DNA from: a phage
Sequence record: PZ674596.1
Direction: 5' to 3' (one strand)
Length of the DNA stretch: 64,000 bases
A model generated the notes under the pieces. It had not been told where the DNA came from. It saw only the letters and a list, made by a program, of their open reading frames with translations, and did not search any database. Every line of letters begins with the position of its first letter. Position 1 is the first letter of the stretch. Both the position numbers and the translations under genes were made by a program. Positions 10,592 through 46,856 of the stretch are shown here, piece after piece.

Positions 10592-11017
10592 ATGACAGCT
10601 ATTAAGAAACTCTACGATGCCGCAAACGTGGCTCTGGATGTTATTGATGATGAAGCAGCAAAAGGCTTTCCTGAACCTGATTGGGCGCATCAGCTACGAA
10701 ACGCTATCGCAGAAATGACCCCACCAGATCCAACCCCCGAGGAGACAGACTGGCAGCGATTCATCCGTATGTACGCTCAGGAAATAGGTCCAACGCCAAC
10801 GGCAGAGCAGGCAATGCTGCTGAAATACTTCAAAGAGGCGGGAGAGGATTTACCAATTGATGACTCAGCATATTGGTTCCACTGCGCATGGCGTAAGTAT
10901 GACGTGATATTCACACAAGGCATGGGAAGCAAAGATATGGTTGTGTGGCATCTACTCCATATAGACACAGCCGTTGACAGAGTTATTGAACAGTTTTTCC
11001 CTAAACAAGAAGATTGA
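10592..11017 (+). CDS. hypothetical protein
   Basis: 141 aa; ATG after GGATAAGAAAAC; no recognisable motif. Confidence 0.45.
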   Translation: MTAIKKLYDAANVALDVIDDEAAKGFPEPDWAHQLRNAIAEMTPPDPTPEETDWQRFIRMYAQEIGPTPTAEQAMLLKYFKEAGEDLPIDDSAYWFHCAWRKYDVIFTQGMGSKDMVVWHLLHIDTAVDRVIEQFFPKQED

Positions 11018-11072
11018 TCGCCTATTCATAACTAACAAAATAAGTAAACACTAACCACAAAAGGAAAAACAC

Positions 11073-28226: not shown

Positions 28227-28771
28227 TTGCTACAGGGGTGGACATCGAATCAACAGGTCTTGATTTCCTCTCAGGCCATAAAATCATTGAAATCGCAATG
28301 GTGAAGTACGAAATTGAGACACAGACAATGGTTGATAGTTTTGTAATGCGGTTCAACCCGCGTCGCAGTATCGATCCGAAAGCGCAAGCGGTACACGGCA
28401 TCAGTCTTGAAGATTTAGCCGCCGAGCCGTTACTAGCCGATCACGCTTCATCTGTCGCTTCGTATCTCTCTTCTTCCGATATTTGGATAGCCCACAACGG
28501 CGAAGCGTTCGATATTCCGTTTATTAGGCATGAGCTGAAAAGTTACGGTTTTTCGCTTCCAGACATCCCATTGATTGACACTCTATTTTCCCTGTGGGCC
28601 ACAGAAGACGGTAAACGTCCCCGCCTTGAAGAGTTGGCCTTCTCTCTTGGCTTTATATACGATCATGCCAAAGCACATAGTGCCTTATATGACACAAACT
28701 TAATGATGCAATGCTTCTTTAAGGCACGTAATAAGTACGGATTTTTTAAATTACCCTCTGAAATTGTGTAA
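28223..28771 (+). CDS. DnaQ-like 3'-5' exonuclease (DEDDh)
   Basis: Exo motifs GVDIESTGLD, HNGEAFDIPF, H-x4-D (AHSALYD); GTG start after AAAGGAG. Confidence 0.8.
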   Translation: MIATGVDIESTGLDFLSGHKIIEIAMVKYEIETQTMVDSFVMRFNPRRSIDPKAQAVHGISLEDLAAEPLLADHASSVASYLSSSDIWIAHNGEAFDIPFIRHELKSYGFSLPDIPLIDTLFSLWATEDGKRPRLEELAFSLGFIYDHAKAHSALYDTNLMMQCFFKARNKYGFFKLPSEIV

Positions 28772-28775
28772 AACA

Positions 28776-28814
28776 AAAGCCTACTTTAAAAAGTTTAAAG
28801 TAGGCTTTCTTTTA
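28776..28814 (+). terminator. Rho-independent terminator
   Basis: 15-bp stem AAAGCCTACTTTAAA / TTTAAAGTAGGCTTT followed by T-rich run. Confidence 0.7.
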
Positions 28815-28929
28815 AAGAACAGTCGCCTTTCAATCATTTCCTGCCTGTATTTAATACTTTTCCGCCTGATAGGTTTAGTCAAAATGCAGCCATCGAAACG
28901 CAAATGTAACCAAACAGAAGGAGACTTAC

Positions 28930-29739
28930 ATGAGTTCGGTTGAAAATGTAATGACAAATGATGATCTGGACGAGCTGACAGCCATGTTGCAATCACTTGA
29001 TGAACCAGTAAAAAAAGCTGCACAGGTTGAAAATACTGATGATATTGACGATCTGCTGCTCGGCCTAGATGCTGGCGTAGCCATGAGTTCTGATGATGTT
29101 GCCGAAGAACTGTTCAATGAAGAAAAAGCAGGTGATTTCAGCTCTGCTTTAAATGAGTTGGAGTTAGCGCATGAGCCTATAAACATAATTAACGCTGAAA
29201 GTGTTGAAGCTGCCGAAAACGAGCCAGAACAATTGGGATTTATTGAGGTTGAAGAGTGTGTTGAGGTTAATGATGAATTAAAAGTTCAACAGTCAAATGA
29301 TAGCAATACAAATAAAAAAGCTCGTACTGCAAGAGGTCCTCGTTTTACTTTAAGTGATAAAGATGATTCGTTTTTCAATAAAGCGGGCTTAGAAAAAGAT
29401 ATTTTCTTAGACGCTTACGATAACGCGCCTGTCAAAGCAAAGGATAAGATATTAAACCTTCTTAATTGGTTTAGCGGAGGTCCAGATATTAGTGTTTACA
29501 CGGTAATTTCCATGAGACACCTTCTCACAGAAAAGAAGGCTACAAGTAATAGTATTAAGATTGCTTTAATGAGCAATCCAGAAAAACCGTATCCGCTTAA
29601 TACTGCGTCAACTCAGGCTGGGCAAATGATGGCTGTATTTCCAGCGACAGGAATTGCCGTTAGAGACGGTGGAAATCTAACATTGAACGAAGAATCACCG
29701 ATCGTTAAGAAGTTTGTCGCGGAGTACACTATTGGATGA
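28930..29739 (+). CDS. acidic hypothetical protein (candidate DNA mimic)
   Basis: 269 aa; N-terminal ~120 aa very rich in D/E; RBS AAGGAG. Confidence 0.5.
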   Translation: MSSVENVMTNDDLDELTAMLQSLDEPVKKAAQVENTDDIDDLLLGLDAGVAMSSDDVAEELFNEEKAGDFSSALNELELAHEPINIINAESVEAAENEPEQLGFIEVEECVEVNDELKVQQSNDSNTNKKARTARGPRFTLSDKDDSFFNKAGLEKDIFLDAYDNAPVKAKDKILNLLNWFSGGPDISVYTVISMRHLLTEKKATSNSIKIALMSNPEKPYPLNTASTQAGQMMAVFPATGIAVRDGGNLTLNEESPIVKKFVAEYTIG

Positions 29740-29813
29740 CGTTCCCCTACTTAAAATAAAGCCCATAGAGAGCTTTATAGTACTGGGTAAGCCAATCACA
29801 TACCCAGCACCAC

Positions 29814-29860
29814 AAAAACGCGCCAGAGAGCTTCTCGTTTGCATTTCTGGCGCGTTTTAT
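29814..29860. terminator. bidirectional hairpin terminator
   Basis: AAAACGCGCCAGA...TCTGGCGCGTTTT perfect inverted repeat. Confidence 0.6.
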
Positions 29861-29922
29861 TTGATTGCCAGACATAAAATCAAATGCAAAAATAGGTATA
29901 TACTTACCTATCGAGAAAGAAG

Positions 29923-30516
29923 ATGATTGCAGCCGAAAAAATCAAACAGCGAAAGCGCGACAACTCTCTTCGTGACCTCTGGAGAACACCTGACTGGCTG
30001 TTTTCTGCCATTCAACGTTATCTTGGAGTGACATTTGATGTTGACGTTGCCTGCAACAAGGACAATGCAAAGCTGCCTAATTTCATAGGCGTTGAGCGTG
30101 ATGCTTTGAAATCTGAATGGGGACAGCCAGGTACAATTGCCTTCCTCAATCCACCCTACTCCAAAATCTACCCCTGGATTGATGCGGCTATACGTGAGCA
30201 GGCTCGTGGAGTTACAACAGTGATGCTAATTCCTCAATCCCTAGATACAAAGTGGTATGAGCGTGCAACAGAGTGTGCGAATGAGACGATTATTCTGTCT
30301 GGTGGCCGCGTAGCGTTTGTCGAGCCTGACGTAAATCTGGGTCAGGTAGAAGTAAACATCAACCCAGGTGGCAGTATGCTCGTTGTTTTTCGAGGATTCT
30401 GTCAGGACGCTGGGCACTCTATAAGCAAGATCCCTTTGGACGTCATGAAAAGTCTGGGAGGGTATGATCCTGCGAATGTGATCAGGAAAAAAAGACCATC
30501 AAAGAAGGCTGCTTAG
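29923..30516 (+). CDS. phage-type N6-adenine DNA methyltransferase (Dam-like)
   Basis: 197 aa; catalytic motif FLNPPYS; small size typical of phage Dam family. Confidence 0.75.
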   Translation: MIAAEKIKQRKRDNSLRDLWRTPDWLFSAIQRYLGVTFDVDVACNKDNAKLPNFIGVERDALKSEWGQPGTIAFLNPPYSKIYPWIDAAIREQARGVTTVMLIPQSLDTKWYERATECANETIILSGGRVAFVEPDVNLGQVEVNINPGGSMLVVFRGFCQDAGHSISKIPLDVMKSLGGYDPANVIRKKRPSKKAA

Positions 30517-30537
30517 TTTGTTCTGGCGTCTGTAATT

Positions 30538-30595
30538 AGCCTGCTTCTGTATATATAAATAACTACATATTAATTATTAATATACGGAAGCAGGC
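30538..30595. repeat. large AT-rich palindrome (copy 1 of 2)
   Basis: AGCCTGCTTCTGTATATATAAAT...ATATACGGAAGCAGGC; near-identical arms recur at 63197-63251. Confidence 0.7.
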
Positions 30596-30701
30596 AGCTT
30601 TGTATCAGAGACTCCAGACCTGAACATCACTACAGAATCCACTAGAACCCCTTCCCAGACGCTTTAAAATCGATTTTATGAACCACTTTAAGGAAACCAA
30701 C

Positions 30702-30932
30702 ATGTCATACCCGACTAATGTCGTTGCGCTCGTAGAGAGCGATTTTCTGGCCCAGGCTCGTGAAATGATGAAAGATCGTGAGCAGGCTTTCAACTTGTAC
30801 GAATGGGCAATTAAGTGCTTGCATCTTGGCGAGCATCGCGAACTTGTTGAACAGCTTTTAGGTGAGTTGATCAATGAGGTGTTTGCCTTGAATGTTCAAC
30901 TACATGGTAGAGAAAATAATCAATCACAATGA
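30702..30932 (+). CDS. hypothetical protein
   Basis: 76 aa from ATG after AAGGAAACC; table ORF starts 24 nt earlier. Confidence 0.4.
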   Translation: MSYPTNVVALVESDFLAQAREMMKDREQAFNLYEWAIKCLHLGEHRELVEQLLGELINEVFALNVQLHGRENNQSQ

Positions 30933-31514
30933 TAGATAAGTACAAACTATTCATAAAGTGAATTGTAAGTGCTAAGATCTGATAGTTTCCAGTCGTAGAC
31001 TGGAGACTCGACCTGATGGGTGGGGGTAAGCGTCACTGGCGTCAGGTTTAAAAAAGCTCACTACCAGCGTAGAACTGGTGCCGTTTAGGTGTCGGGGAAG
31101 GGGGAACCAAAGTGAGCAGAGACAAGGGTCACTTTATGATTGTCGAGTCTGGGGTGTTTCGAGAGGTTGAATCCAGTACTCCCCTTCATAAAGTGTGGGA
31201 AGATCTCGGTTCTGGGGTGCTGTCATCCATAACTTCCCAAGTCTAAGCTGGCAGTAGACTTAGACCATAACTTTTCAGGTTATGAAACGACCAGGTTGGT
31301 GAGAGATTTTTATACTCACCTCCCTGGGAGAGTATTACCTGAAAAGACAACCTCTCACTTCGTTCGAGGTGAACTTCACTCACTTCGTTCGTTCAGTTCA
31401 GGTTTATAAAAACCTGTTCTGGGAAGTAATTTGTTTATTTTAATAATTATTAACACGCACGCGTGTGCGCACGCGCGAGGAAAAATCGGCGCGGCGCTTG
31501 ATTCAGGAGTTTAT

Positions 31515-32105
31515 ATGACGACGAAGACACCAGCCCGATCGCAAGCAAAAACTCGCAAAAAAGCCAAAAACAAAAATTCCCCCCGCACCAATCCCACAAC
31601 GCCTGTCGTAGAGTTCAATCCCCAGCTTAAAACCGTGAAAATCTTTAGTGATGGCTCTTGCCTTAAAAATCCGGGTGGCCCGGGCGGTTACGGTATCGTT
31701 CTCCAGTATCGTGGTGAGGAACGCGAGTTCTCAGATGGTTTTCATAGCACCACCAATAACCGCATGGAGATGATGGGGGCACTTATCGGGCTGGAGCGTT
31801 TGAAATATCCATGCAACGTTATTTTGCACTCTGATAGCCAGTATCTGAAAAACGGCATGACACAGTGGATGAAATGGTGGAAACGCAATGGATGGATGAC
31901 TTCTGACAAAAAACCGGTAAAGAATGTTGATCTGTGGAAGCGTCTGGATGAGGCCGCAAGTCGACATAATGTTCGCTGGAAGTGGGTTAAAGGTCACGCC
32001 GGGCATCGTGAAAATGAAATATGTGATCGACTCGCGAAGATCGCAGCTTTTTCAGCAGCAGATATGCCTCACAAGAAAGATATTGGTTTTGTTTATAATA
32101 AATAG
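31515..32105 (+). CDS. rnhA: ribonuclease HI with basic N-terminal extension
   Basis: Near-complete match to RNase HI core ([35 protein letters not shown]); start at ATG 31515 after CAGGAG. Confidence 0.85.
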
Positions 32106-32253
32106 TAAGTAAGTGTTTACCTATCATTTTAAATCATGTATCTTATCGGCGTCAGGATGACAATGTGTCGGTAAGACACAGTTCCAGGATGGAACGAGAA
32201 AGGCGGCTGGCAATCGCCAGCCGCAACTCTTTCTGACACTGGATGGAGTCCAC

Positions 32254-32748
32254 ATGGCACGTCAAACCTATTTCACTTCTGTAACTAAACGCCCTCGTTC
32301 TTTACGTCAAATTTTGGCCGAATTATTTAGCGGTCGTGTTATGTCACGCCTTGAAGAACTAGAGACTACCGTTCGGTTGCTGAATGAACGTTTAGATAAT
32401 CAAGCGTCAGTTGTTGCGAACGTGGGGGCGATTGTTGCCTCTGGCTCTTCACGCGAAGCGAAAAATGCACGGCCTTTAGTGAAGGAGAAAAACAACAAGG
32501 ACAGTTCGAATGGAAAATTTTCAAAGAAAGAGGCTGAAACCAATGGCCTACGTTCTCATTATAGTTTCACTGGCGACGGTAGCCGTTCCAGCCGGTCAGA
32601 GCCTTTTGATGCCGGATTCATCCATCACCACACCTTCGTCGACGACAATTACCACCACTCCAGTGGAGCGTCCTGTCACTCTGGATGGGATGGCGGTGGA
32701 TGCGATACCTCAAGTTCATCCAGTTACTCAGGATCATGCTGTGACTAA
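32254..32748 (+). CDS. hypothetical protein (frame uncertain)
   Basis: 164 aa; 3' part is low-complexity S/G/C-rich and overlaps an alternative frame 32510..32761. Confidence 0.3.
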   Translation: MARQTYFTSVTKRPRSLRQILAELFSGRVMSRLEELETTVRLLNERLDNQASVVANVGAIVASGSSREAKNARPLVKEKNNKDSSNGKFSKKEAETNGLRSHYSFTGDGSRSSRSEPFDAGFIHHHTFVDDNYHHSSGASCHSGWDGGGCDTSSSSSYSGSCCD

Positions 32749-32757
32749 GGCGGTTGT

Positions 32758-32946
32758 ATGAACTGGTTTTCAAATCACTTTGGAAAAATTTGGCTGGCAA
32801 TTCTTGCCCTTATGGCCGCCGGTTGGGTATCGAACATTATAAAACTTGTTTGCTCTGGCGATCTCCAGTTTCAGGCTGGCATGACCTTGGCTCGTGTAGT
32901 TGGGATTTTTGTTTTTCCAGTTGGTTCGGTACTTGGTTATTTCTGA
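32758..32946 (+). CDS. small membrane protein
   Basis: 62 aa with two hydrophobic segments; overlapped by alternative ORF 32754..32984. Confidence 0.35.
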   Translation: MNWFSNHFGKIWLAILALMAAGWVSNIIKLVCSGDLQFQAGMTLARVVGIFVFPVGSVLGYF

Positions 32947-33039
32947 CGGCTGTTAGTGCATATGCATTGACCATCTCTGCGTAAGCAATTTATGTAATTA
33001 GAAAACAACTTGTTTTGACAAATAATAAAAGGAAAGCAC

Positions 33040-33465
33040 ATGTTAGGTTTCTTCAAAAAGAAAACTCGTAAAGCTGTTATCGAAGTCAAAAAAATGGAGA
33101 ACCGTGATGCGGTTGAGGCCACCGTGTGGGGCGCGTACATGATCTCCTATGCCGACGGCACATGTGACGCAAAAGAAATTGCCATTCTTGAGAAGACAAT
33201 TGCAGCTCTGCCTGCGTTTTCTCCGTTTGCTGGTGAAATTGCCCAAATGAGCGCCAATATCCGTGCTCGTTACGAAGCGTCCCCTCGTTCTGCTAATGCA
33301 CAGGCTATTCGTGAGCTGTCTGATATTGCGGGTACTCCAGAGGCGGTCGATGTTCTGTGTCTGTGCCTTGATATTGCCGATCAGGACGGCATTGGTGAAC
33401 AAGAAGAGCAGGCACTGAAAAAGATCGCCCAGGCGCTTCAGTTGTCACTGGATGCTTATCTCTAA
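33040..33465 (+). CDS. TerB-like (tellurite-resistance-type) domain protein
   Basis: 141 aa; size and helical acidic pattern reminiscent of TerB; start context AAAAGGAAAGCACATG. Confidence 0.4.
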   Translation: MLGFFKKKTRKAVIEVKKMENRDAVEATVWGAYMISYADGTCDAKEIAILEKTIAALPAFSPFAGEIAQMSANIRARYEASPRSANAQAIRELSDIAGTPEAVDVLCLCLDIADQDGIGEQEEQALKKIAQALQLSLDAYL

Positions 33466-33623
33466 TGCTTGAGAGATTCCGGCTTGTGATCGTCATTGCT
33501 CTTCTGGTGATGGCGGTGTTGGTGGATTTTACGGGAAAGATGATGTCTGTCATTTCTGATGGCGTCCTCATTGGTCTGGCGATCTACTTCGCTTATCCGT
33601 TAGTTCGTAAAGCAAAGTGTTAA
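33465..33623 (+). CDS. small membrane protein (52 aa, not in ORF table)
   Basis: ATG overlaps upstream stop (TAATG); translation MLERFRLVIVIALLVMAVLVDFTGKMMSVISDGVLIGLAIYFAYPLVRKAKC; followed by a terminator hairpin. Confidence 0.4.
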   Translation: MLERFRLVIVIALLVMAVLVDFTGKMMSVISDGVLIGLAIYFAYPLVRKAKC

Positions 33624-33626
33624 TGA

Positions 33627-33653
33627 CAAGGGCCAAATGGCCCTTGTGTTTCG
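33627..33653 (+). terminator. Rho-independent terminator
   Basis: CAAGGGCC-aaat-GGCCCTTG followed by TGTTTCGTT. Confidence 0.6.
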
Positions 33654-33762
33654 TTGACCGAAATAGAGAGTTTGCACCTTTACGTTTAGCTTGCTCCCCT
33701 TTTATGCCACATCACAATAAAGCCAATAAGAAAACAACTTGTTTAAGCATTAGGAAAAACAC

Positions 33763-34329
33763 ATGTGCAAGAAATGCAAAGCGATAGCTGATGAACAAAA
33801 CGCCTTATTCGAAGAAATGGATGCTAATGAACTGGTCAAAATGTTAGCCATTCTTCGAGGAATAGAAGACGTTTCCATATTTGAGAGACTGTTTACAATA
33901 CTTAATTTTAATTCCACCTTTGAAGAGCCAACTCAGATTGTAGCTTTGGCACACCATTTCGGTGTTCATTACCTTGCTGAAAAAGAGAGAGCTGATAAGT
34001 TGCAAGCGACTTTGGATATGGTGAGCGAGACTCAAGAAACTGATGACGGTAACAAAAGTGAGACGATTATTGCCAGCAAAGATCGTGAAATTGCCGGGCT
34101 TAAATCCTCTCTAACGATGTTGATGTCTGCAATCAACCTTATGTCTTCTAAAGCAGGTTCTAAAATGCCATCACTAAACAGCGACGATCCGATGGCCGTT
34201 CGCCAGCTTTTAGGTGCAATGGCCGACCAGCTCGACGACACAAAGAGTCGCCTTGAAGACATGATGCGGGAGCTCACGCATCGCCATGACTTGAATAAGC
34301 AGCCGCACAAAACGCAATACGCACTCTAA
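33763..34329 (+). CDS. hypothetical protein
   Basis: 188 aa; start context AGGAAAAACACATG. Confidence 0.5.
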   Translation: MCKKCKAIADEQNALFEEMDANELVKMLAILRGIEDVSIFERLFTILNFNSTFEEPTQIVALAHHFGVHYLAEKERADKLQATLDMVSETQETDDGNKSETIIASKDREIAGLKSSLTMLMSAINLMSSKAGSKMPSLNSDDPMAVRQLLGAMADQLDDTKSRLEDMMRELTHRHDLNKQPHKTQYAL

Positions 34330-34346
34330 TACAGCACCAGTCGACA

Positions 34347-34369
34347 GGGGGCGACAGCCCCCATTTTTA
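34347..34369 (+). terminator. Rho-independent terminator
   Basis: GGGGGC-gaca-GCCCCC followed by ATTTTTA. Confidence 0.65.
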
Positions 34370-34470
34370 CGCCTTAAATCTGCTGTAACGCCTATGAATG
34401 CAGCTTTTATGCCTTTTCAAGTTTGCGATAATTACACCAATCAGAAAACAAATTATTTAATGGTGTAATT

Positions 34471-36156
34471 ATGAATACAGCCCTTTCCATCATCGACGAT
34501 GCCAGCTCAAACACGGCTATCGACTATCGTCAGGAAATGAATGTCATCCACGAAATCGTGGCCGAGTGCGAGAAAGAGATCGCCTTCATGTATCAGGTAC
34601 ACGACTTCGTTTATGGCGACGAACGCCACAACATGATTAATCGCCTGCTGAGACTAAACCATCGACCAGATGAAGATCGCTCGCGTTTAAATCGAGGTTG
34701 GTTGGATAAAGTCGATCTGGAATGGGTGAAACAGAATATTTGGGCCGAGTACTGGAGGAAGGTCACGGACATGACTAACGTTTTGCTGATCATGCCAGCT
34801 TCCCGTCGAGATGAGTGGCGCGAGCAGTTTATAGAGGGCAAACAGGAAGTCATCAAAACTGACAGAACCGGCTACCAGATGAAGGTTAAAGAGTTCGTTG
34901 GTGTACCGGAGTTCAAAGCAGAAACGGTCATACCCACGATGCTTAATTTGCTGAATGACAGGCACAAATATCTCTCTGAGCGCGTGTATGGCTTGTTTAA
35001 GGCGCTGAGTCCTGCGCACAAGACAAATAAGACAAACGGTTTCAGCGAGCGGCTGATAATCGCTGACTGCATTTCTGATTTCTGGCGGGACAGCGTTAGC
35101 GTGAACTATCGCAAAGAGGACTACATCGACGATCTGCGTGTCTTGCTTCATTTCTTCGCGCACAAAGAATTTATTACCATCAACCGCACTGCTGAGGTGC
35201 TATCAGCTGCGTATCGGGCAAACGACTGCCAGACCGGTGACTGGATGAACGTCGATGGAAATCTGATGCGCGTGAAGATGTTCAAGAACGGCAACGTTCA
35301 CTTTGAAATACATCCTGACGTGGCCTGGAAGTTGAATGAGGTGCTGGCTTACAGTATGCCTGCTGCAATCCCCGCGCCATGTCGCACCGCGCCAAAAACA
35401 CGGGCACCAAAGCAGTTCGGGTTAATCCAGAAGACGATCTCCGTGCCGGTTCGCACTGCGCTTCGTGACGGGCGATTGAGCAAAGACAAAGGCGTATGGT
35501 ACTTCTCTGATTCAGCTCTCCAGAAGTCGCAGGTGGAAGAGCTTGAGCGCACACTGAGCTTCATTGGCGGCGTGCAGGAGAAAAAACACTGGCAGTTCCC
35601 GTATGACATCGTCCATACGCTAAATACGATTGTGGCTACCGGATTAATACCGGATACAAAATCACACCAGTTCTACCCTACCCCACGCTTGATTGCTGAG
35701 TACGTTGCCAGAGCCACTGAATTGAAGCCTGGTGAGAAGCTGCTGGAGCCTCAAGCCGGACGTGGGGATCTTCTGGCCTATATTAACGCCGATCTGGAAG
35801 ATGTTACCTGCATAGAAATCGCACCTCTCTTCGCTGATATCCTGCGTGGAAAAGGGTATACGAACACGATTTGCTGCGACTTCATAAAGTGGTCTGAGGA
35901 CAACGCAGGTTATCAGTTCGACAAAATCGTTATGAACCCGCCGTACTCGCTTGGTCGTCATAGAGAGCACACTCTGGCTGCGCTTGGGCATCTGAAAGTC
36001 GGCGGGCGTCTTGTAGCAGTATTGCCGGGCACTGCGCCAATACTGGACTGGATGACGATGGATAATTACGTTTATGCCAGAGGGAAGTCGTTTACCAACG
36101 AGTTTGAAGACACAGGGATCACAGTCAGCGTATACGTTTTCAAACGCGTTAAATGA
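34471..36156 (+). CDS. large protein with C-terminal N6-adenine DNA methyltransferase domain
   Basis: 561 aa; SAM-binding-like LEPQAGRGDL then catalytic VMNPPYS near C-terminus; ~400 aa N-terminal region of unknown function. Confidence 0.6.
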   Translation: MNTALSIIDDASSNTAIDYRQEMNVIHEIVAECEKEIAFMYQVHDFVYGDERHNMINRLLRLNHRPDEDRSRLNRGWLDKVDLEWVKQNIWAEYWRKVTDMTNVLLIMPASRRDEWREQFIEGKQEVIKTDRTGYQMKVKEFVGVPEFKAETVIPTMLNLLNDRHKYLSERVYGLFKALSPAHKTNKTNGFSERLIIADCISDFWRDSVSVNYRKEDYIDDLRVLLHFFAHKEFITINRTAEVLSAAYRANDCQTGDWMNVDGNLMRVKMFKNGNVHFEIHPDVAWKLNEVLAYSMPAAIPAPCRTAPKTRAPKQFGLIQKTISVPVRTALRDGRLSKDKGVWYFSDSALQKSQVEELERTLSFIGGVQEKKHWQFPYDIVHTLNTIVATGLIPDTKSHQFYPTPRLIAEYVARATELKPGEKLLEPQAGRGDLLAYINADLEDVTCIEIAPLFADILRGKGYTNTICCDFIKWSEDNAGYQFDKIVMNPPYSLGRHREHTLAALGHLKVGGRLVAVLPGTAPILDWMTMDNYVYARGKSFTNEFEDTGITVSVYVFKRVK

Positions 36157-36217
36157 TAGGTAAATACTTACCTAATTTGTGTAAGAATGTAGTTACTAAA
36201 CGATAAGAGAAAAACAC

Positions 36218-36922
36218 ATGAACAACCTCCAGTTAGAGCATTTTAACGTCACAGGCCATTCTGATTTTCCTTTCAAGTTTACATTGAAAGGTTATGCAGA
36301 GGATGCGGTAGGCCAGATCATTATTGATAAAGGCATCGTTAAGTTTGAGGGGAATTTTGATGAATCCGCGAAAACATTCATAGACTTCGTTGCCAAACGT
36401 TGGAGCGAGCAATGGAAAGACCTGGAAAAGCGCGCTAATGAGTTTGATCGGTTCATGGATGCAATGGATACAGCAAAAGAGGCTCTTGCTGCCGGGACTC
36501 CGTTAGATCTGGAGTCACTTTTCAACGGCGAAGTGGCCTCTGCGATGTTCGCCACCATGTTCGCGGGTGAGTTCGTCCGCAGCGGTGCCAAAAACTACCT
36601 TGAGCTGGATTACAACGTCCCTGCAATTGGCGACTTCGTCGTTACCATCCAACGCAAAGAAGGTAAGACGCCAGGTGAACGCGTCGCAGAGCTTGAGGCC
36701 GTTGTGGATCAGCGTAACGGAGAGTGTGACCGTTTGATCAACGAGCTTCATGCACTTCGGGAAGAAAGAATATGTGCGGGTAGCAATACACGTAATGCTG
36801 CGGATATCTACTTCCAGTTAGTCGAGGAATGCCAGATTCCACCAGGTGGCTCTCTTGTCGATTACGTCAGACATTTAATGGCGGAAGTTAACTCCAGCCA
36901 TAAAGATGGTGAGGTGCGCTGA
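36218..36922 (+). CDS. hypothetical protein (shares C-terminal module with 39406..40098)
   Basis: 234 aa; C-terminal NTRNAADIYFQLVEECQIPPGGSLVDYV also present in a second protein. Confidence 0.5.
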   Translation: MNNLQLEHFNVTGHSDFPFKFTLKGYAEDAVGQIIIDKGIVKFEGNFDESAKTFIDFVAKRWSEQWKDLEKRANEFDRFMDAMDTAKEALAAGTPLDLESLFNGEVASAMFATMFAGEFVRSGAKNYLELDYNVPAIGDFVVTIQRKEGKTPGERVAELEAVVDQRNGECDRLINELHALREERICAGSNTRNAADIYFQLVEECQIPPGGSLVDYVRHLMAEVNSSHKDGEVR

Positions 36923-37302
36923 TGTTTGGCATTGACGCACAGCGTGTAGCCGCTTTTGCAAAAAGCCCTCTTGATAATCCCTTGTCTCGTAGTGAGCAAA
37001 TGGAGCTGGCAAGGCTTTTTCTTCACATTCAAAAACAGGCAGACATTTTCAATAACATGCCTAATCAACCTATTCTGGATGGTCACATCCAGATGGTCAT
37101 TAACAGTCATGAGAAAGGCTGGGCTGCAATCGTCCCCTGCACAATTACATACAAGTTGGCGAAAGAGGTTCAAGAGTTTCGAAAAGCCAGTGTCGAATCG
37201 GAGGCTACCAAAGCCGCAATAAACACTCTTATTCGCATGGGGTTCACATGGAACGGTGGAGCCTACTGGCAAGCACCTCACCCCATTTTATCCGGCAATT
37301 AG
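36922..37302 (+). CDS. hypothetical protein
   Basis: 126 aa; start overlaps upstream stop. Confidence 0.45.
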   Translation: MFGIDAQRVAAFAKSPLDNPLSRSEQMELARLFLHIQKQADIFNNMPNQPILDGHIQMVINSHEKGWAAIVPCTITYKLAKEVQEFRKASVESEATKAAINTLIRMGFTWNGGAYWQAPHPILSGN

Positions 37303-37332
37303 ACGCTACAAATCCTTCGGCATGAATAAATA

Positions 37333-37395
37333 AAGGCCATAAGTTGTGGCCTTAAATAAATTGTTTTCCACCTTTTCTTATTTGTGAAAATAACC
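37333..37395 (+). promoter_or_regulatory. conserved terminator-promoter cassette
   Basis: Hairpin AAGGCCATAAGTTGTGGCCTT followed by AAATAAATTGTTTTCCACCTTTTCTTATTTGTGAAAATAACC; related copies near 42960, 46910, 50971, 51577. Confidence 0.55.
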
Positions 37396-37421
37396 ACAAC
37401 TAGAAAACAACGGAGTTAAGA

Positions 37422-38063
37422 ATGTCTAGTATTTCCGAAGCTCATATGTTCGCCGCTGGCGCTCATGGTGGCGTTGGTCAGAAAAGAAAATATACCGGCG
37501 AAGACTACATCAACCACCCGGTTGCGGTCCGAGAGATTGTTGCATTGCATGACGGAACCGTGGAGATGCAAATCGCGGCGCTTCTGCATGATGTGGTCGA
37601 AGACACCCATGTAACCATAGAGATGGTTCGTGATCACTTCGGTGAGCGCGTAGCTGAAATGGTTCAGGCTCTGACCAACATTGCAAGGCCAGAAGACGGC
37701 AATCGAATACAGCGTTTCATCATCAATGTCCGGGAGCTGGAGCAAAATCTCGACATGCAGACGCGCATGATCAAGCTGGCTGACCTGCTCGACAATACCT
37801 CTTCTATCGTGAGTCGCGATCCCGAGTTTTCAGCTGTCTACCTCGCAGAGAAAGAACTGATGCTGGACGTACTCTTTCACGGCAAAGAGATTGGTGCCAA
37901 CGCTGATGTTGTCGAGTACATGGAGAGGATAGGTATAGAACACCCGTTGCTATTAAGCGCAATGGCGAAAGTCACTGAAGGTATTGCGCTTCTGAAACCG
38001 GTACACATCAAACGTTATGAAAAACACAAATCGCTGATCTGGAGCGCGTGGGAGGCTGCATGA
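37422..38063 (+). CDS. SpoT/RelA-type HD-domain (p)ppGpp hydrolase-like protein (small alarmone hydrolase)
   Basis: 213 aa; aligns to RelA/SpoT hydrolase domain: EDYINHPVAV..IAALLHDVVEDT..FGERVAEMV..IKLADLLDN. Confidence 0.7.
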   Translation: MSSISEAHMFAAGAHGGVGQKRKYTGEDYINHPVAVREIVALHDGTVEMQIAALLHDVVEDTHVTIEMVRDHFGERVAEMVQALTNIARPEDGNRIQRFIINVRELEQNLDMQTRMIKLADLLDNTSSIVSRDPEFSAVYLAEKELMLDVLFHGKEIGANADVVEYMERIGIEHPLLLSAMAKVTEGIALLKPVHIKRYEKHKSLIWSAWEAA

Positions 38064-38602
38064 AGGTCGAAAAAATAGATGTTCTTTCCTTTGTGCTGAC
38101 GGATCTGGAACGCCTCGATCCGGTTCGAGTAATGATTGAAAACTACGAACCTGGTAAGGGAAGAATCACCATCATCTGCTACGGAAAAGCGTGGACTGCG
38201 GCTTGGTTTGCTATGGGCGGTGATGATGTGCAGACGTTCATTAAGCGGGTCAGCAACGAGTATCTAATCGGCTATTTCGACTCTCAACTGCGAAGCACGG
38301 TCGACGATGACAACGATGCAAATCTGCTTTTCGTGAAGTCAGAAATCATAAAGTTACGAAGAGAGAGAGAAATCGACGCCGTACTGGCTCGTGAAATGTG
38401 GGACGAGGCGGAAAACGCCGATGACGTAAAAGAAAGCTGCTGTTGTTTCGGCGTCGGTAACAAACTGCTGAATCTCTTTGGTGATGATCCGTGGTATGCC
38501 GACTGGCCAACGGTACCAAACCCGAAATACCAGTATCTGGAACGCATTGTGAACGCGGTACGTGAAGGGCTGAAAGAGTTAGACAAGTTAGAGGCATCGT
38601 AA
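38060..38602 (+). CDS. hypothetical protein
   Basis: 180 aa from ATG 38060 overlapping upstream stop. Confidence 0.45.
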   Translation: MKVEKIDVLSFVLTDLERLDPVRVMIENYEPGKGRITIICYGKAWTAAWFAMGGDDVQTFIKRVSNEYLIGYFDSQLRSTVDDDNDANLLFVKSEIIKLRREREIDAVLAREMWDEAENADDVKESCCCFGVGNKLLNLFGDDPWYADWPTVPNPKYQYLERIVNAVREGLKELDKLEAS

Positions 38603-39108
38603 TGAGAGAGAAAATCAAGAACCCGGTCGTCGTATTGTATAAACGGGAAACCAGCGATTCTTATGCGGTATCCATCACTGATGGAAGCCAGAACATGCAC
38701 GATGGTCTGCTAATGGCCGCCGTATCTCCTGATGATTCGGACTACCCTTTCGCCACTTTCGCTATGGTTGGTTACTACATGGCTGCCGAAATTGAGAAGT
38801 TGCGGGCGCAGAGAGACGCATTAGCGGCGGAGAATGTGGCATTGCGATCTAAGGCTGCGGAACTGGCACATGAAGCGTCAAAAATTTACTCGGCATATAA
38901 CGCCACTATCACAGAGCCTGACGGGGATTTTATGGACATGCAGACATTGCATGAAATGCAGTGCATAGAAACTCCAGCCACCGACGCTTTTCTGGCTGAA
39001 GTACGTGCGCAGGGCGTGGAGATGTTTGCGGAGTGTGCATACACACTTGAACATCATGATCACGCATTAGCTTTTGCCGCCGAGCTACGTGAAGGAGGCA
39101 ACCAGTGA
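38602..39108 (+). CDS. hypothetical protein
   Basis: 168 aa; start overlaps upstream stop. Confidence 0.45.
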   Translation: MREKIKNPVVVLYKRETSDSYAVSITDGSQNMHDGLLMAAVSPDDSDYPFATFAMVGYYMAAEIEKLRAQRDALAAENVALRSKAAELAHEASKIYSAYNATITEPDGDFMDMQTLHEMQCIETPATDAFLAEVRAQGVEMFAECAYTLEHHDHALAFAAELREGGNQ

Positions 39109-39404
39109 CTGTATGTCTTATTGATAAACGTCGACGTGGGCAACAAATACCATCTGTTGAAATGCCGAATCACACATGGTTTTGCGTACTTGATATCGAT
39201 GGTATCGATACGTTGATCGACACTCGTCATTACTGCGAAACCGCAACAGCTACTCCTGCAAAAGCAAAGAAAATGGCTGCTCTGATAGAAAACTGGACTC
39301 CACCTGATGGTTGGTGCAATGGGAATGATCGAGATTGGCACGAAAAAATGAAGGGCTATATCTGCGATTTTTTACGTAAATGCAACGGATTCAGGGTGAT
39401 GTGA
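39105..39404 (+). CDS. hypothetical protein
   Basis: 99 aa; GTG start after GAAGGAGG. Confidence 0.4.
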   Translation: MTVCLIDKRRRGQQIPSVEMPNHTWFCVLDIDGIDTLIDTRHYCETATATPAKAKKMAALIENWTPPDGWCNGNDRDWHEKMKGYICDFLRKCNGFRVM

Positions 39405-39405
39405 T

Positions 39406-40098
39406 ATGACCAACATTAACTATCAGGCACTGCGTGAAAAGGCAGAAAAAGCAACGTGGGGAGACTGGGACTCATATAAACCACACCGTGGCGCACGTGG
39501 TTATAAGGTCCGACTAAGTGGTCAGGCCATTGCGCAACACGTTCTGAAAAACAACGCTGAATTTATTGCTGCCTTTAATCCAAAGGTTGCTTTGGCATTA
39601 CTGGATGAACTGGAAAGAAACCAGCAATACATCAAACGCCGTGACCAGGAGAACGAGGAAATTGCGCTAACGGTAGGGAGGCTTCGCGTTGAGCTGGAAG
39701 GCAAAGACAGCAAAATAGCCAATCTTACCGCCGAACGCGATGCTCTTCGTGAAGGTGAGATGGGCGACGCTAGGCATAGCAACACACGGGCCGCAGCTGA
39801 TATCTACTTCCAACTGGTCGAGGAGTGCGAAATTCCTGCTGGCGGTTCTCTGGTCGAGTACGTTGACGATATGCGCGAGAAGTTGGAAGCCGCAGAGAAG
39901 CGCATTGCAGAGTTAGAAAGTGGTTCTCAGGCACAAAAGTTAGTTGAAGCAATCATTGTTGCGATAGAAAACGAACAGGAAAGGCTTTTTGATGAAGATT
40001 ACCTAATGGATTCGAAAGAATGCATTGACGTAATTCGTGAAGAAGTAAAGCGATGGAATGATTCCCGTGCCGCTGGCATTCGCATCAAAGGAGAGTGA
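39406..40098 (+). CDS. hypothetical protein (paralogous C-terminal module)
   Basis: 230 aa; NTRAAADIYFQLVEECEIPAGGSLVEYV matches C-terminus of 36218..36922. Confidence 0.5.
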   Translation: MTNINYQALREKAEKATWGDWDSYKPHRGARGYKVRLSGQAIAQHVLKNNAEFIAAFNPKVALALLDELERNQQYIKRRDQENEEIALTVGRLRVELEGKDSKIANLTAERDALREGEMGDARHSNTRAAADIYFQLVEECEIPAGGSLVEYVDDMREKLEAAEKRIAELESGSQAQKLVEAIIVAIENEQERLFDEDYLMDSKECIDVIREEVKRWNDSRAAGIRIKGE

Positions 40099-40099
40099 T

Positions 40100-40363
40100 A
40101 TGGCAACTTTGACAAAAAAAGAACAAGCATGGTTGAGCGAATTACAGGACGTTCTTGATCGCTGCCCATCACCGAAAAAAATTGGTTTTTACACCATTGG
40201 CGATAAAAGCATTTACCTGTATGACCTGCGCCGCATGGATGAAATCATGGAGGCTCTTGATAATCGTTCGTCGATGGATTGGTGTGTTGCTGTCCATGAT
40301 ATGAATGCCGGATTTGATGAAAGGATTTTGTTCCCCTCGTCAGTTGAAAGCACTGCGGGTTAA
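40100..40363 (+). CDS. hypothetical protein
   Basis: 87 aa from ATG 40100 after AAAGGAGAG; table ORF extends into upstream gene. Confidence 0.4.
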   Translation: MATLTKKEQAWLSELQDVLDRCPSPKKIGFYTIGDKSIYLYDLRRMDEIMEALDNRSSMDWCVAVHDMNAGFDERILFPSSVESTAG

Positions 40364-40373
40364 GGAGTAACAC

Positions 40374-41213
40374 ATGACCACTATAACCGATAAGAAACAG
40401 TATCCAGGCGAGCAATATCTTAATGAGCTAATCACCAACATAGAGTTTGCTGCAAGGGCACCAGTTGAAGTCGTGAGAGCGATGGCAGCAGAGCTACAGA
40501 AGCGGCGCGAAGCTGATAGTGCAGAACCTGCAAGTAATCATGAAGAGTTGCCGCTTGATTATCTCCAAGGTCAAAAAGATGGTCTTGAATGGGCTGCGCA
40601 GCTTGCAGAAGCAAATCACCCACAAACTGGCGACTGGCTTTACGATGACCCGCTGGAGCTGGCTAAAGCTATCAGAAAAGGTCCTGACATGCCCGAATTC
40701 GATGGACCAACTCCGGTAACTCCGGATGGTTGGATAAGCTGTAGTGAGCGAATGCCTGTAATTGGCGAGCTAAATTGGAGAACTAGTTTTCCTTTACTGG
40801 TTATGTGTGAGATCGGCGTTATACCTGCTTATTACGGCTTTGTGAGCGTTAATGGTGATAGGCATTATGGCTTTATGGAGAGTCTTAAATACGGAGACGA
40901 TAACGGCAACCATCCTCAAACTAATGAATATGGTCTGATTAGCAATGTCACACACTGGATGCCACTACCAGAACGCCGCAGGAGTCGAACAGTGAATAAA
41001 GCAGAGTTATTTCAGAAAATATCGGCTCTCGCGACTGAATGTCACGCTATAGCATCTGAGCTTGATGTTGGCGGTGAACGAACCGAGATGTTCGAAATAT
41101 ACAGTGTGCTGCGCAATCTCTGTCGGCGTGGCTACGCTACTCAGGTAGGGCGAATGACTAACCCACTACTTTCATTCTGTGATGAGGATGACTCGGATGA
41201 GGATGACGAATGA
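40374..41213 (+). CDS. hypothetical protein with acidic C-terminal tail
   Basis: 279 aa; ends DEDDSDEDDE; central W..C..RMP / THWMPLP segment. Confidence 0.45.
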   Translation: MTTITDKKQYPGEQYLNELITNIEFAARAPVEVVRAMAAELQKRREADSAEPASNHEELPLDYLQGQKDGLEWAAQLAEANHPQTGDWLYDDPLELAKAIRKGPDMPEFDGPTPVTPDGWISCSERMPVIGELNWRTSFPLLVMCEIGVIPAYYGFVSVNGDRHYGFMESLKYGDDNGNHPQTNEYGLISNVTHWMPLPERRRSRTVNKAELFQKISALATECHAIASELDVGGERTEMFEIYSVLRNLCRRGYATQVGRMTNPLLSFCDEDDSDEDDE

Positions 41214-41593
41214 TGCATAAATCAGTAGCCGGTGAGCTTCAGAAGGAAGTCGATAATACCACTGATCTATTGGACGATATTTTAAGCATTCTCGCGCTGC
41301 TTGAGGCTGGTGATTGGTCAGAACATTGCACTAAAACAGAGCTAGGCGGTCGGCTTGAAAGAGAGATTACACGACTGATTAGCGATGCCCAAAATGATTT
41401 GTCACCTGAGCATCTCCCCTGCGATGTAGTTCTTGTGCCAGGGATGAGGATACACGAAGGCGTCAGAACGAAAACATTATTAACCGCATTACAGAGAAGA
41501 GCCGAACTAAGCTCGCGGATAAAGTTGATGCCATCCAAAATATTTGATGTCGTCAAATTTACGCCATCGCAACATACTGAGAGAGATAAATGA
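41210..41593 (+). CDS. hypothetical protein
   Basis: 127 aa; start overlaps upstream stop. Confidence 0.4.
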   Translation: MMHKSVAGELQKEVDNTTDLLDDILSILALLEAGDWSEHCTKTELGGRLEREITRLISDAQNDLSPEHLPCDVVLVPGMRIHEGVRTKTLLTALQRRAELSSRIKLMPSKIFDVVKFTPSQHTERDK

Positions 41594-42405
41594 GCACGGT
41601 AGCGAAAGATCTCACAGAAGATATTCTCAATGAAATTATTGCTGGTGCAAATACCTCGCTTGAGCAACTTCTTGCGTTAGCACTGAGAGCCGAACGTCGA
41701 GACAGAAATCGTTTTTATGAGCGATTACCAGGGAAGCGACCAGATAGATCGGATGAAGAAGGTTGCGATATAGACTACATGGAGCCTTCAGAGATTTATC
41801 AACTTGGTAAAGATGACGGCTGGAACGCTTATCACGATGCTGTGATGAAGTTGGATGAAAAAGTTAAACCTCTTTCTCGACCGGTAGATCACGGTTTCCG
41901 CGATAACTGCGAATGCTCTAGTTGCCAGACCACGGCCCGTATTTGTTCCGAATTGACAGATAAGTCCAGCCTAATCTACGAAGTTAATGTAGGCGGTAAT
42001 ACATGGGTCGAATGCACAAGAGCTGCATACGTAAGAGCAAAAGACAAGGGTGAATTAACCAGAGTTGTTACCCATCACCCAAATAATGAGCTTAAAGATC
42101 ACCAGATTAGAGAACTGGTGAACGAGTTGCGGGATATTGCGGTTACGTATCACGGAACGCAGCAATTGCGGGAGAAAATTGCCAGAGCAGTGAACAACTC
42201 GCTCAAAGGTGGACAATCCCAACCGAAACGTATACGAATTACACATATAGGTGAAAACGGAACAGAAATCCCCCAATTTTCTGTTGGGGACATCTTTGAT
42301 GTACATGGAGAAGAGTTTGGCGAGCCTCACATCACTATGCCTAGTGGCCATGTTTATTGGCTAAGAGCTATGGAGAAATATGGTGATAAATGGGAAGTGT
42401 TATGA
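41590..42405 (+). CDS. hypothetical protein with Cys-rich motif
   Basis: 271 aa; CECSSCQ..C motif; overlaps next gene start. Confidence 0.45.
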   Translation: MSTVAKDLTEDILNEIIAGANTSLEQLLALALRAERRDRNRFYERLPGKRPDRSDEEGCDIDYMEPSEIYQLGKDDGWNAYHDAVMKLDEKVKPLSRPVDHGFRDNCECSSCQTTARICSELTDKSSLIYEVNVGGNTWVECTRAAYVRAKDKGELTRVVTHHPNNELKDHQIRELVNELRDIAVTYHGTQQLREKIARAVNNSLKGGQSQPKRIRITHIGENGTEIPQFSVGDIFDVHGEEFGEPHITMPSGHVYWLRAMEKYGDKWEVL

Positions 42406-42418
42406 GGGATGCGAAGTT

Positions 42419-42943
42419 ATGACTAAATTTGGAAAGCTGGAAGCTCATTTGCTAACTCGTAACTACCGCCATGATGTGCATCCATATAGACAGTGGATCG
42501 ATGAAAGCGAAGGAGTTGTTACATTCCCTCTATACAGGTTTGATGGGATGTTGGCCGGGTATCAGACATACAGACCAGGCGCTCCTAAGCAGCATAGCAA
42601 TCCGAAGATGGCCCGGTATTTCACACGAGCGCACGGCAGACAGCTACTATGGGGAACCTATCTTCCTTTAAAAGATGGACCGATATGGATAACTGAGTCG
42701 ATTTTTAAAAGTGCAGCAGTGCACAACGCGGGCGGAAATTCGTGGGCGCTGTTAGGTTCGACTTTCTCAGCAGGATTACGTCGTCAACTGGCAATGCTGC
42801 CGTATGACTTTCGCGTAATAGGTGACAATGATGCGGCTGGTGAATCACTTGTGAAGTCTTTCGGAAAAGGTTTTGTGGCCCCGGATCTTGACGAGCTACA
42901 ACCAAATGAAGTGTCTCATTTGATTTTTAGCCATAGCCAATAA
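42419..42943 (+). CDS. Toprim-like domain protein (tentative)
   Basis: 174 aa from ATG 42419; acidic motifs ITESIF and GDNDAAGE spaced like Toprim E and DxD. Confidence 0.4.
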   Translation: MTKFGKLEAHLLTRNYRHDVHPYRQWIDESEGVVTFPLYRFDGMLAGYQTYRPGAPKQHSNPKMARYFTRAHGRQLLWGTYLPLKDGPIWITESIFKSAAVHNAGGNSWALLGSTFSAGLRRQLAMLPYDFRVIGDNDAAGESLVKSFGKGFVAPDLDELQPNEVSHLIFSHSQ

Positions 42944-42959
42944 GCATCCCTTCTCCATT

Positions 42960-43022
42960 AAGGCCACTAGTTGTGGCCTTAAACAATTTGTTTTCTACCT
43001 TTTCTTGTTCGAGAAAATAACG
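42960..43022 (+). promoter_or_regulatory. conserved terminator-promoter cassette
   Basis: AAGGCCACTAGTTGTGGCCTT followed by AAACAATTTGTTTTCTACCTTTTCTTGTTCGAGAAAATAAC. Confidence 0.55.
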
Positions 43023-43079
43023 TTCATTTGTCTGGTGCTATGTACCGATCAGTTGCACTGAGTGAGCTTCTTTCATGTA

Positions 43080-43099
43080 TACTGTATAAATGAACAGTA
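43080..43099 (+). promoter_or_regulatory. LexA (SOS) box upstream of humD-like gene
   Basis: TACTGTATAAATGAACAGTA fits CTGT-N8-ACAG; 17 nt upstream of ATG 43116. Confidence 0.7.
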
Positions 43100-43115
43100 T
43101 TGAGGGCAAAACGCT

Positions 43116-43505
43116 ATGGGCTTCCCTTCTCCTGCGGCGGATTATGCTGAGAGCCGTATTTCTCTTGATCAGCAGATAATTAGACATCCTTCAGCGACCT
43201 ACTTCATGAGAGCGGCTGACAGCCATCATCGTGAGGGAATATTGCAGGGCGCATTGCTGGTGGTCGATTCCTCACTTACCCCGGTTGATGGTTCTCTGCT
43301 TGTATGCGCTCTGGATGGGGAATATCGCGTAAAAAGATACCGGAAGTATCCACGTCAGCATCTGGAGGATTTAAGAACTGGTAAGAAGGAAGCATTGCCA
43401 AAGGATGACGATGGATGCACGGGCAGCAATGCCGTGTTTGGTGTGATCACTCACATTATCAACGACGCAAGAAGTGGCGAGTTTGATGATTGTCCCGTGA
43501 TGTAG
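43116..43505 (+). CDS. humD: UmuD'-like protein lacking the N-terminal arm (HumD-like)
   Basis: 129 aa beginning MGFPSPAADY, i.e. at the UmuD Cys24-Gly25 processing site; Ser and Lys of the catalytic dyad alignable (ADSH; VKR); P1 HumD has the same form. Confidence 0.75.
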   Translation: MGFPSPAADYAESRISLDQQIIRHPSATYFMRAADSHHREGILQGALLVVDSSLTPVDGSLLVCALDGEYRVKRYRKYPRQHLEDLRTGKKEALPKDDDGCTGSNAVFGVITHIINDARSGEFDDCPVM

Positions 43506-43516
43506 GAGAACTGATT

Positions 43517-43542
43517 AGGCGGTGCATTGCACCGCCTTTTTA
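43517..43542 (+). terminator. Rho-independent terminator between convergent humD and mrp
   Basis: AGGCGGTGCA-tt-GCACCGCCT followed by TTTTT. Confidence 0.7.
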
Positions 43543-44643: not shown

Positions 44644-44800
44644 CCCGTCTCCTTTATTTTAATTTGCGCAATTGTCGCCTTGTAGTGTACTCCAGCTACG
44701 ACATTTAATCATTTATGAGAAATGCTGTTATCACATGGCAGACATAAGGCCATTTTGTTACTATCAAGCCCCTTTTCACTACAAAGAAGTAATGCCTACT

Positions 44801-46834: not shown

Positions 46835-46856
46835 TTAAACAACCTCTCTTCGCAAT

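Follow-up and report, generated by a model that had tools for sequence, protein, structure and literature searches.

The tciA-tciB(-tciC) operon of phage P1 (GenBank AF234173) reportedly goes back to the P1 genome paper published by Lobocka and colleagues in 2004. According to the P1 GenBank note, the tci name was assigned "by homology" only. Here, we describe a tciA-tciB cassette in a 64,000-nucleotide (nt) stretch of phage DNA (sequence record PZ674596.1; the whole stretch is called the window below) and compare it with the closest described systems. Following up an original prediction of a gene for a TerB-like protein coupled to an unlisted gene for a small membrane protein, we found that the region is, judging by its sequence, almost certainly the operon first named in P1, which in this case resides on a pSLy3-type (SSU5-supercommunity) phage-plasmid of Escherichia coli. 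The locus is already known in that the pair has a name, Pfam and PHROG families exist for its products, and near-identical records are annotated.

In ter operons, the TerC-TerB complex has been reported as the core of the system (PMC11003894, PMC12054061) and terB, terC, terD, and terE were all required for tellurite resistance (PMC3823874); TerC-TerD has also been reported as a minimal unit. TerB of terZABCDE (R478, E. coli O157, and Klebsiella; Protein Data Bank entry 2JXU) resembles TciA in its Pfam family, fold, size (151 versus 141 amino acids [aa] in TciA), two A-D-G...E motifs, and basic N terminus, and it works with the membrane protein TerC. However, the element described here carries no TerC, TerD, TerE, TerZ, or TerA; tciA is phage-borne and located among early/lytic genes, and TciA has as its partner a protein of 52 aa that shows no relationship to TerC. 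The annotation of the 114-kb relative pSLy3, with which the window is collinear around the locus, contains no ter gene besides tciA.

The anti-phage systems Shango, Bunzi, and Dionysus contain TerB-type proteins as well, and a membrane-surveillance role has been proposed for such systems. TerB proteins are described as amphitropic, and in Dionysus they go together with membrane proteins (bioRxiv 10.1101/2025.09.30.679545). The tciAB pair resembles these systems in that a TerB-type protein (SngA in Shango, BnzA in Bunzi, and DinB in Dionysus) is encoded together with one or more membrane proteins (in Dionysus, the transmembrane protein DinA and the pore-forming DinC). However, tciAB has no PADLOC match and no helicase, ATPase, or pore-forming toxin as a partner, and it is encoded by phages, including virulent ones, whereas those systems reside in host defence islands. 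Among phages, TerB of an Erwinia jumbo phage has been listed as a standalone gene in a comparison of jumbo phages, which suggested that it functions in competition with superinfecting phages (PMC7824862).

Identity and linkage of the two genes

The first gene, tciA (33040..33465, + strand), is an ATG-initiated open reading frame (ORF) of 141 aa and, as had been predicted, encodes a member of the TerB family. Its product scored 31.5 bits against Pfam TerB (PF05099; threshold 24.4; E = 2.4e-7) with residues 33 to 136 covered, and it matches PHROG 632. The sequence also matches a solved TerB structure, and the predicted model is a confident six-helix bundle, i.e., an all-alpha fold like those of solved TerB-type structures. 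Specifically, residues 1 to 21 constitute a basic, disordered N-terminal tail (net charge of +4.5), followed by the acidic six-helix bundle (residues 22 to 141; net charge of −10). TciA contains two A-D-G...E motifs (D39 G40 E46 and D116 G117 E122), the residues of which are invariant or nearly so (≥90% for D116) in relatives of 30 to 99% identity. Such repeated acidic A-D-G....E motifs of TerB were reportedly proposed as a ligand or metal site by Anantharaman and colleagues in 2012. P1 TciA is 78.7% identical to TciA of the window over its full length, nearly all TciA homologues carry a precomputed PF05099 assignment, and tciA is under strong purifying selection, with a median pairwise ratio of nonsynonymous to synonymous substitution rates (dN/dS, or omega) of ~0.03.

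The second gene, tciB (33465..33623, + strand), is an ATG-initiated ORF of 52 aa, and the small hydrophobic ORF anticipated at this place can indeed be read here, its product having a grand average of hydropathy of 1.36. TciB scored 46.6 bits against Pfam DUF3927 (PF13064; threshold 25) and matches PHROG 1470, "TciB-like." It is a stand-alone protein of about 50 aa, as are the DUF3927 family members in general (45 to 65 aa), and contains the family hallmark D-F-T-x-x-x-x-S-x-x-x-D-G; the residues found to be invariant in alignments are D21, F22, S28, D32, G33, and P45. Hydropathy analysis revealed two hydrophobic segments (residues ~7 to 20 and ~26 to 47), split by a conserved D-F-T-[GS]-[KR] stretch, with both ends of the protein being basic.

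Searches of large protein collections placed TciB in a small family. In a set of 5.8 billion proteins, the family forms 504 clusters at 90% identity, nearly all of which are ~51 aa long and stem from Enterobacteriaceae, and a profile search run exhaustively over 1.84 billion representatives yielded only 154 clusters at 50% identity. The signature is kept in very distant copies, such as those of the Salmonella N4-like phages SP-058, As2, and Pollock and of phage D6, and other such matches scored 23 bits (Erwinia jumbo phage), 37 bits (Pantoea phage LIET2), and 46 bits (Pseudomonas phage Nican01). Overall, the TciB motifs are retained at 30 to 40% identity over phages of Escherichia, Klebsiella, Salmonella, Erwinia, Pantoea, and Pseudomonas. 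In Nican01 (PP179318.1), the match is an unannotated 60-codon GTG ORF (L089:1635-1817) that starts 2 nt past the TerB gene and scores 46 bits (E = 1.7e-16) against the TciB/DUF3927 profile; this gene was missed by the deposited annotation.

Since tciB is short and lacks a strong Shine-Dalgarno sequence, we considered whether it might be a chance ORF, with the TerB gene alone being real. This explanation is almost certainly wrong given that the product passes the DUF3927 threshold, that 79 of 80 viral loci hold an intact tciB (51 distinct protein sequences) with the overlap described below, that tciB is under purifying selection (median pairwise omega of ~0.29), and that its motifs persist at the low identities given above. 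On the same grounds of family match, intactness, selection, and distant conservation, the 52-aa ORF is, as far as comparative sequence analysis can tell, a real gene.

Next, we analyzed the linkage of the two genes in both directions, using 80 viral contigs fetched through TciA and 80 loci fetched through TciB. We found that tciB adjoins tciA in 79 of the TciA-fetched loci and, conversely, that a TerB ORF ends within a few bases of tciB in 79 of the TciB-fetched loci, the one exception being a contig end. In the window, the genes share a TAATG (33463..33467, + strand), in which the last A of the tciA stop codon TAA (33463-33465) is the first base of the tciB ATG (33465-33467), so that the claimed overlap stands, with position 33465 used twice. 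Among the 79 tciA loci with tciB, the junction is a 1-nt overlap (TAATG or TGATG) in 37 and a 4-nt overlap (GTGA or ATGA) in 42, and a stop/start overlap is kept in the P1, D6, lambdoid, N4-like, and P2/186-like copies. No good Shine-Dalgarno sequence was found at canonical spacing before the tciB start. Conserved overlaps together with the lack of such a sequence form the pattern that termination-reinitiation coupling would be expected to show, and tciA and tciB would then be translationally coupled via the TAATG. As judged from these loci, tciA and tciB are an obligate pair that is under purifying selection and moves together between unrelated phages. Apparent TerB-DUF3927 fusions (P0221, P0290, P0300, P0255, and P0304) were rejected as frameshifted or chimeric single-contig products.

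The pair is closest in kind to that of P1, another E. coli phage-plasmid, in which the overlap is alike (TGATG rather than TAATG) and TciB belongs to the same DUF3927 family, sharing the invariant D-F..S...D-G....P motif at 38% identity. However, tciC is present in P1 and absent from the window, where tciB is followed directly by a terminator and no further ORF. Moreover, the P1 pair lies among tRNA genes in the C1-controlled ban operon, whereas here it forms a self-contained cassette with an element-specific palindrome. Two P1 isolates, OP279344 (L090:1201-1799) and AF234173 (L003:3001-3590), encode TciA proteins that are 35% and 79% identical, respectively, to TciA of the window, and the TciB proteins of these isolates differ only in the first ~20 residues, with no differences between the D-F-T motif and the C terminus. 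Since the TciB difference is confined to the N-terminal part, the tciA allele of P1 appears to have been swapped with a breakpoint inside tciB.

Distribution across phages and possible functions

At least eight unrelated phage backbones harbor the tciAB pair, in most cases among early or lytic genes. In P1, tciAB (with tciC) is located between the C1-controlled Pban operator and ban, and the pair is also found in D6, in a P1 variant, and in SSU5-type phage-plasmids of E. coli and Klebsiella. In lambdoid prophages, it directly follows Q and precedes the lysis genes (holin and endolysin); in P2/186-like prophages, it is part of the early operon, with fil (PF10893) on one side and the replication genes on the other. 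Finally, virulent N4-like phages, Erwinia jumbo phages, and phages of Pantoea and Pseudomonas possess tciAB as well; tciC is missing from most copies outside P1. Since the pair is present in virulent phages and in repressor-controlled early/late operons, we infer that it is expressed in lytic growth. Consistent with this timing, a P1vir transcriptome preprint detected tciA, tciB, and tciC transcripts during infection.

Phages in which TerB has another neighbor bear on what TciB may do. The Vibrio N4-like phages vB_VpaP-MS02 (L092:75-1623) and BUCT194 (L103:1-1723) encode a TerB homologue that is 34 to 35% identical to TciA, lies in the same early region, and likewise adjoins a membrane protein gene; however, the partner there is a 340-aa TerC/Alx-family membrane protein encoded directly upstream of TerB, and neither phage has a DUF3927 ORF after TerB. 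Because TerC adjoins TerB in these phages, TciB is perhaps a functional, non-homologous substitute for TerC. In phage Zuri, the position of tciB is taken by the gene for an unrelated membrane protein of 67 aa. In BUCT194, a second TerB gene was found ahead of the TerC/Alx gene.

Based on these comparisons, we propose that TciB is located in the inner membrane and would serve as the anchor or effector partner of TciA, which would be an amphitropic TerB protein; TciB would recruit TciA or be regulated by it, and the two would amount, in functional terms, to a pared-down counterpart of the TerB-TerC complex of ter operons. Produced along with early/lytic genes, they would change the physiology of the inner membrane and thereby enable the infected cell to withstand or keep out secondary insults to its membrane, for example, from superinfecting phages, pore-forming colicins, or ionic/oxidative stress. 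Detoxification of tellurite would not be part of this role. This membrane-partner logic draws on the strong hydrophobicity and basic termini of TciB and on the basic tail and acidic bundle of TciA, the latter combination being consistent with an amphitropic protein. Taken as a whole, i.e., identity plus mechanism, we regard this account as having slightly better than an even chance of being correct, while the mechanism as stated, with TciB as the membrane partner of TciA and an altered inner-membrane physiology, is held only tentatively.

The database label points to a different function, namely, that tciAB is a lysogenic-conversion cassette that confers tellurite and/or colicin resistance like the ter operon. 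TciA is a full-length TerB homologue, ter operons confer resistance to tellurite, colicins, and phages, and both the P1 GenBank note and PHROG class the tci genes as morons. However, ter operons depend on terB, terC, terD, and terE (or minimally on TerC-TerD), and the element has no TerC, TerD, or TerE; since no other ter genes are present, literal tellurite resistance is doubtful. In addition, lysogenic conversion is impossible in the strictly virulent phages that carry the pair (N4-like and jumbo phages), the copies in temperate phages lie in repressor-controlled early/late operons, and the name itself was given by homology. Therefore, we consider this explanation unlikely.

The P2/186-like arrangement, in which tciAB directly follows the filamentation gene fil, raises the possibility that the pair blocks cell division by perturbing the divisome or envelope, causing the infected cell to filament. 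Such a role would correspond to the "inhibition of cell division" element in the name tci. The Yersinia ter operon has been linked with filamentous growth (PMC4633105), and the P1vir preprint places tciA, tciB, and tciC in a group with icd and kilA. However, that grouping follows annotation and not experiment, the tci genes are not needed for P1 plaque formation, and the argument amounts to guilt by association, with no filamentation phenotype reported for TciA or TciB. A role in cell division is, in our view, rather improbable.

Given that TerB domains are part of several validated anti-phage systems and that the pair is widespread in virulent phages, phage TerB might also act as an anti-defence decoy that mimics or titrates host TerB-dependent sensors (Ter, Shango, Bunzi, and Dionysus), with TciB placing it at the membrane. 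The omega of 0.03 for tciA is what would be expected if the protein had to match a conserved host target. However, no PADLOC TerB-type model matches TciA, there is no evidence of interaction with host systems, and the E. coli hosts of the element are usually without such systems, making a decoy very unlikely.

Lastly, TciB may be a membrane-depolarizing or holin-like effector and TciA its cytoplasmic regulator or antidote, in the manner of a toxin-antidote pair or a lysis timer. TciB is indeed a very hydrophobic protein of ~50 aa with conserved acidic residues (D21 and D32) inside its hydrophobic region, the predicted translational coupling would set the ratio of both products, and the pair lies just 5′ of holin and endolysin genes in lambdoid phages. 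However, this neighborhood is found solely in the lambdoid copies and not in the window, P1, P2-like, or N4-like phages; most backbones have the pair far from lysis genes, in early/replication blocks, and separate holins are annotated where lysis cassettes do adjoin. Furthermore, comparison of the pair with Pfam holin and small membrane toxin (type I toxin) families returned nothing at E ≤ 1. We therefore consider an effector of this kind scarcely probable.

Returning to TciB as the membrane partner of TciA, several results weigh against this proposal. First, the AlphaFold2 model of TciB is one unbroken helix (residues 2 to 51; predicted local distance difference test score of 92) and not the helical hairpin expected from two hydrophobic segments; for this reason, we claim no two-transmembrane topology, and TciB could form either a hairpin or just one helix, which might be long or kinked. 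Second, hhalign detected no similarity between TciB and TerC, so that the parallel with TerC is an analogy only. Third, no genuine TerB-DUF3927 fusion was found among long matches, and no membrane partner is visible beside the phage TerB genes of PMBT3 and Cygsa01. Fourth, scans of TciA, TciB, and the neighboring proteins with PADLOC gave no matches. Fifth, tciA, tciB, and tciC of P1 were non-essential in a genome-wide CRISPR (clustered regularly interspaced short palindromic repeats) interference screen (PMC10695390), and the tci operon is one of eight variable regions of P1-like elements, with roughly half the members of one subgroup having lost it (PMC9603915). Finally, we found no report of interaction, membrane localization, phenotype, or a function test for any TciA or TciB. 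The fuller version of the proposal, in which TciA-TciB is a minimal, self-contained TerB plus membrane-partner module expressed in lytic growth, with TciB standing in for TerC, and takes part at the inner membrane in conflicts among phages or between phage and host (superinfection exclusion or neutralization of TerB-based host defence), is a possibility that we put forward with considerable doubt.

Flanking signals and the surrounding element

The right edge of the cassette is marked by an intrinsic-terminator-like hairpin followed by GTTTCGTT (33626..33655, + strand), in agreement with the terminator proposed at this site. The 9-bp GC-rich stem-loop (33626-33647) reads ACAAGGGCC-AAAT-GGCCCTTGT; it has six GC pairs and a 4-nt loop, begins 3 nt past the tciB stop codon, and folds with its flanks at approximately −21 kcal/mol. 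A GC-rich hairpin is present 3′ of tciB in nearly all lineages, and the stem sequences differ among the E. coli, Klebsiella, and lambdoid copies. At the left edge, a Shine-Dalgarno sequence for tciA (AGGAAAG; 33030..33036, + strand) can be read. The "AAAAGGAAAG..CAC ATG" context of the tciA start is also found in lambdoid copies, and since these share the same context, we place the left edge of the common module at the tciA Shine-Dalgarno sequence.

Upstream of this edge lies the palindrome AAAACAACTTGTTTT (33002..33016, + strand), 24 to 38 nt 5′ of the tciA ATG, and a possible −10 hexamer, TGTAAT (32993-32998, + strand), was noted by sequence reading. We found no convincing sigma-70 promoter upstream of tciA, the sole consensus-type match placing the start site within the Shine-Dalgarno sequence. 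The palindrome is not confined to tciA: with up to two mismatches, the motif AAAACAA(C/G)TTGTTTT has 29 strand matches in the window versus 1.19 expected, corresponding to about 13 sites centred at 22007, 33009, 33738, 42987, 46925, 46976, 48416, 49598, 50082, 50985, 51749, 63297, and 63322. Many + strand genes have such a site 18 to 38 nt 5′ of the start codon, and the sites often lie 12 to 13 nt 3′ of a GATAAT-like hexamer, with the copies at 46925 and 46976 flanking such a hexamer. In 34 SSU5-type loci of E. coli and Klebsiella, the palindrome is kept at −38/−41 before tciA despite diverged flanks. It looks like a candidate operator or promoter element of an early-gene block or regulon of the phage-plasmid.

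Two conserved genes precede tciA, one for a 164-aa protein with a Ser/Cys/Gly/His-rich C terminus (32254-32748; PHROG 10411) and one for a 62-aa protein with two hydrophobic segments (32758-32946; PHROG 6006), the latter being syntenic with tciAB solely in SSU5-type elements. There is no terminator between these two ORFs and tciA; therefore, read-through into tciA from further upstream is possible. The immediate neighbors of tciAB are unrelated hypothetical proteins, and the cassette as a whole sits within a + strand block of nucleotide-metabolism/replication genes (nrd/thyA/DHFR/Dam/RNase H).

A scan of the window operon against Rfam returned nothing meaningful, and NCBIfam gave no matches. 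Other copies of the operon have RNA features of their own. The lambdoid and Erwinia copies, namely, those of JLK-2012 (L004:2400-2506), Fostie (L005:2400-2506), ~35 IMG/VR loci, and an Erwinia jumbo phage (L088:1100-1206), share a conserved leader of ~90 nt before tciA. The leader is closed by a 16-bp helix, in which the Shine-Dalgarno AAAGG is paired with CCUUU. For this leader, RNAalifold predicted 26 pairs, 10 of them with a compensatory change, the covariation term being weak since the sequences are close. The leader matched no Rfam family at E ≤ 1 and may be an undescribed cis-regulator that sequesters the Shine-Dalgarno sequence. In addition, a member of the small RNA family STnc100 (RF02076) lies directly 3′ of tciB in JLK-2012 (L004:3159-3331; 107 bits), and a weak match to the same family, under the gathering score, lies 5′ of tciA in P1 (L003:2848-2967; 33 bits).

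The ~1.2 kb surrounding the locus is 99.8 to 99.9% identical to a set of ~110-kb non-mobilizable plasmids of E. coli and Shigella, and it shares 98 to 99% identity with phage records, among them that of Escherichia phage Cyrano. In total, 416 plasmid records match the locus region, including 239 from Klebsiella and 168 from Escherichia, and the variant is present in 209 of 5,426 complete E. coli genomes, with 211 of 213 copies being plasmid-borne. Among the relatives, pSLy3 is the best known and serves as the type element for a group of SSU5-like phage-plasmids; positions 28593-37464 of the window are collinear with it at 99.3% identity, with a few indels elsewhere. RefSeq labels the two ORFs in pSLy3 "tellurite/colicin resistance protein" (tciA) and "DUF3927 family protein" (tciB), and the Cyrano record labels them "P1 TciA-like protein" and "P1 TciB-like protein." The GC contents of tciA (49%) and tciB (46%) are close to that of the window (46%), so that the composition gives no hint of recent foreign origin.

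Elsewhere, window positions 37465-43528 and 9850-11038 are without a counterpart in pSLy3, and the type I restriction-modification genes and group II intron of pSLy3 are missing from the window; these non-collinear segments are variable cargo regions of the phage-plasmid. Host-like apbC (iron-sulfur cluster carrier) and full-length metG (methionyl-tRNA synthetase) genes probably lie at ~43540-46840, as deduced from the annotation of pSLy3 through 98.6% collinearity with its positions 102173-105464 and not from reading the window itself.

Implications for the TerB family

The window locus itself adds little: complete E. coli genomes contain over 200 annotated copies that are nearly identical to one another. 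What the comparison across phages suggests is that the database label "tellurite/colicin resistance" is probably misleading, in view of the two-way linkage of tciA and tciB, the replacement of TciB by TerC in Vibrio phages, the early/lytic placement, and the lack of other ter genes. If the proposed module is real, it would also include the TerB proteins of the Erwinia jumbo phage and of Nican01. The TerB domain is shared by the ter operon and several recently validated anti-phage systems, and tciA-tciB, with two linked proteins, is its smallest naturally recurring unit. Since the pair is carried by genetically tractable phages (P1 and N4-like), it could reveal how TerB domains function at the membrane; our comparisons make such a two-protein model testable and, if the model holds, tciAB would provide a simple system for a domain that has long been enigmatic.

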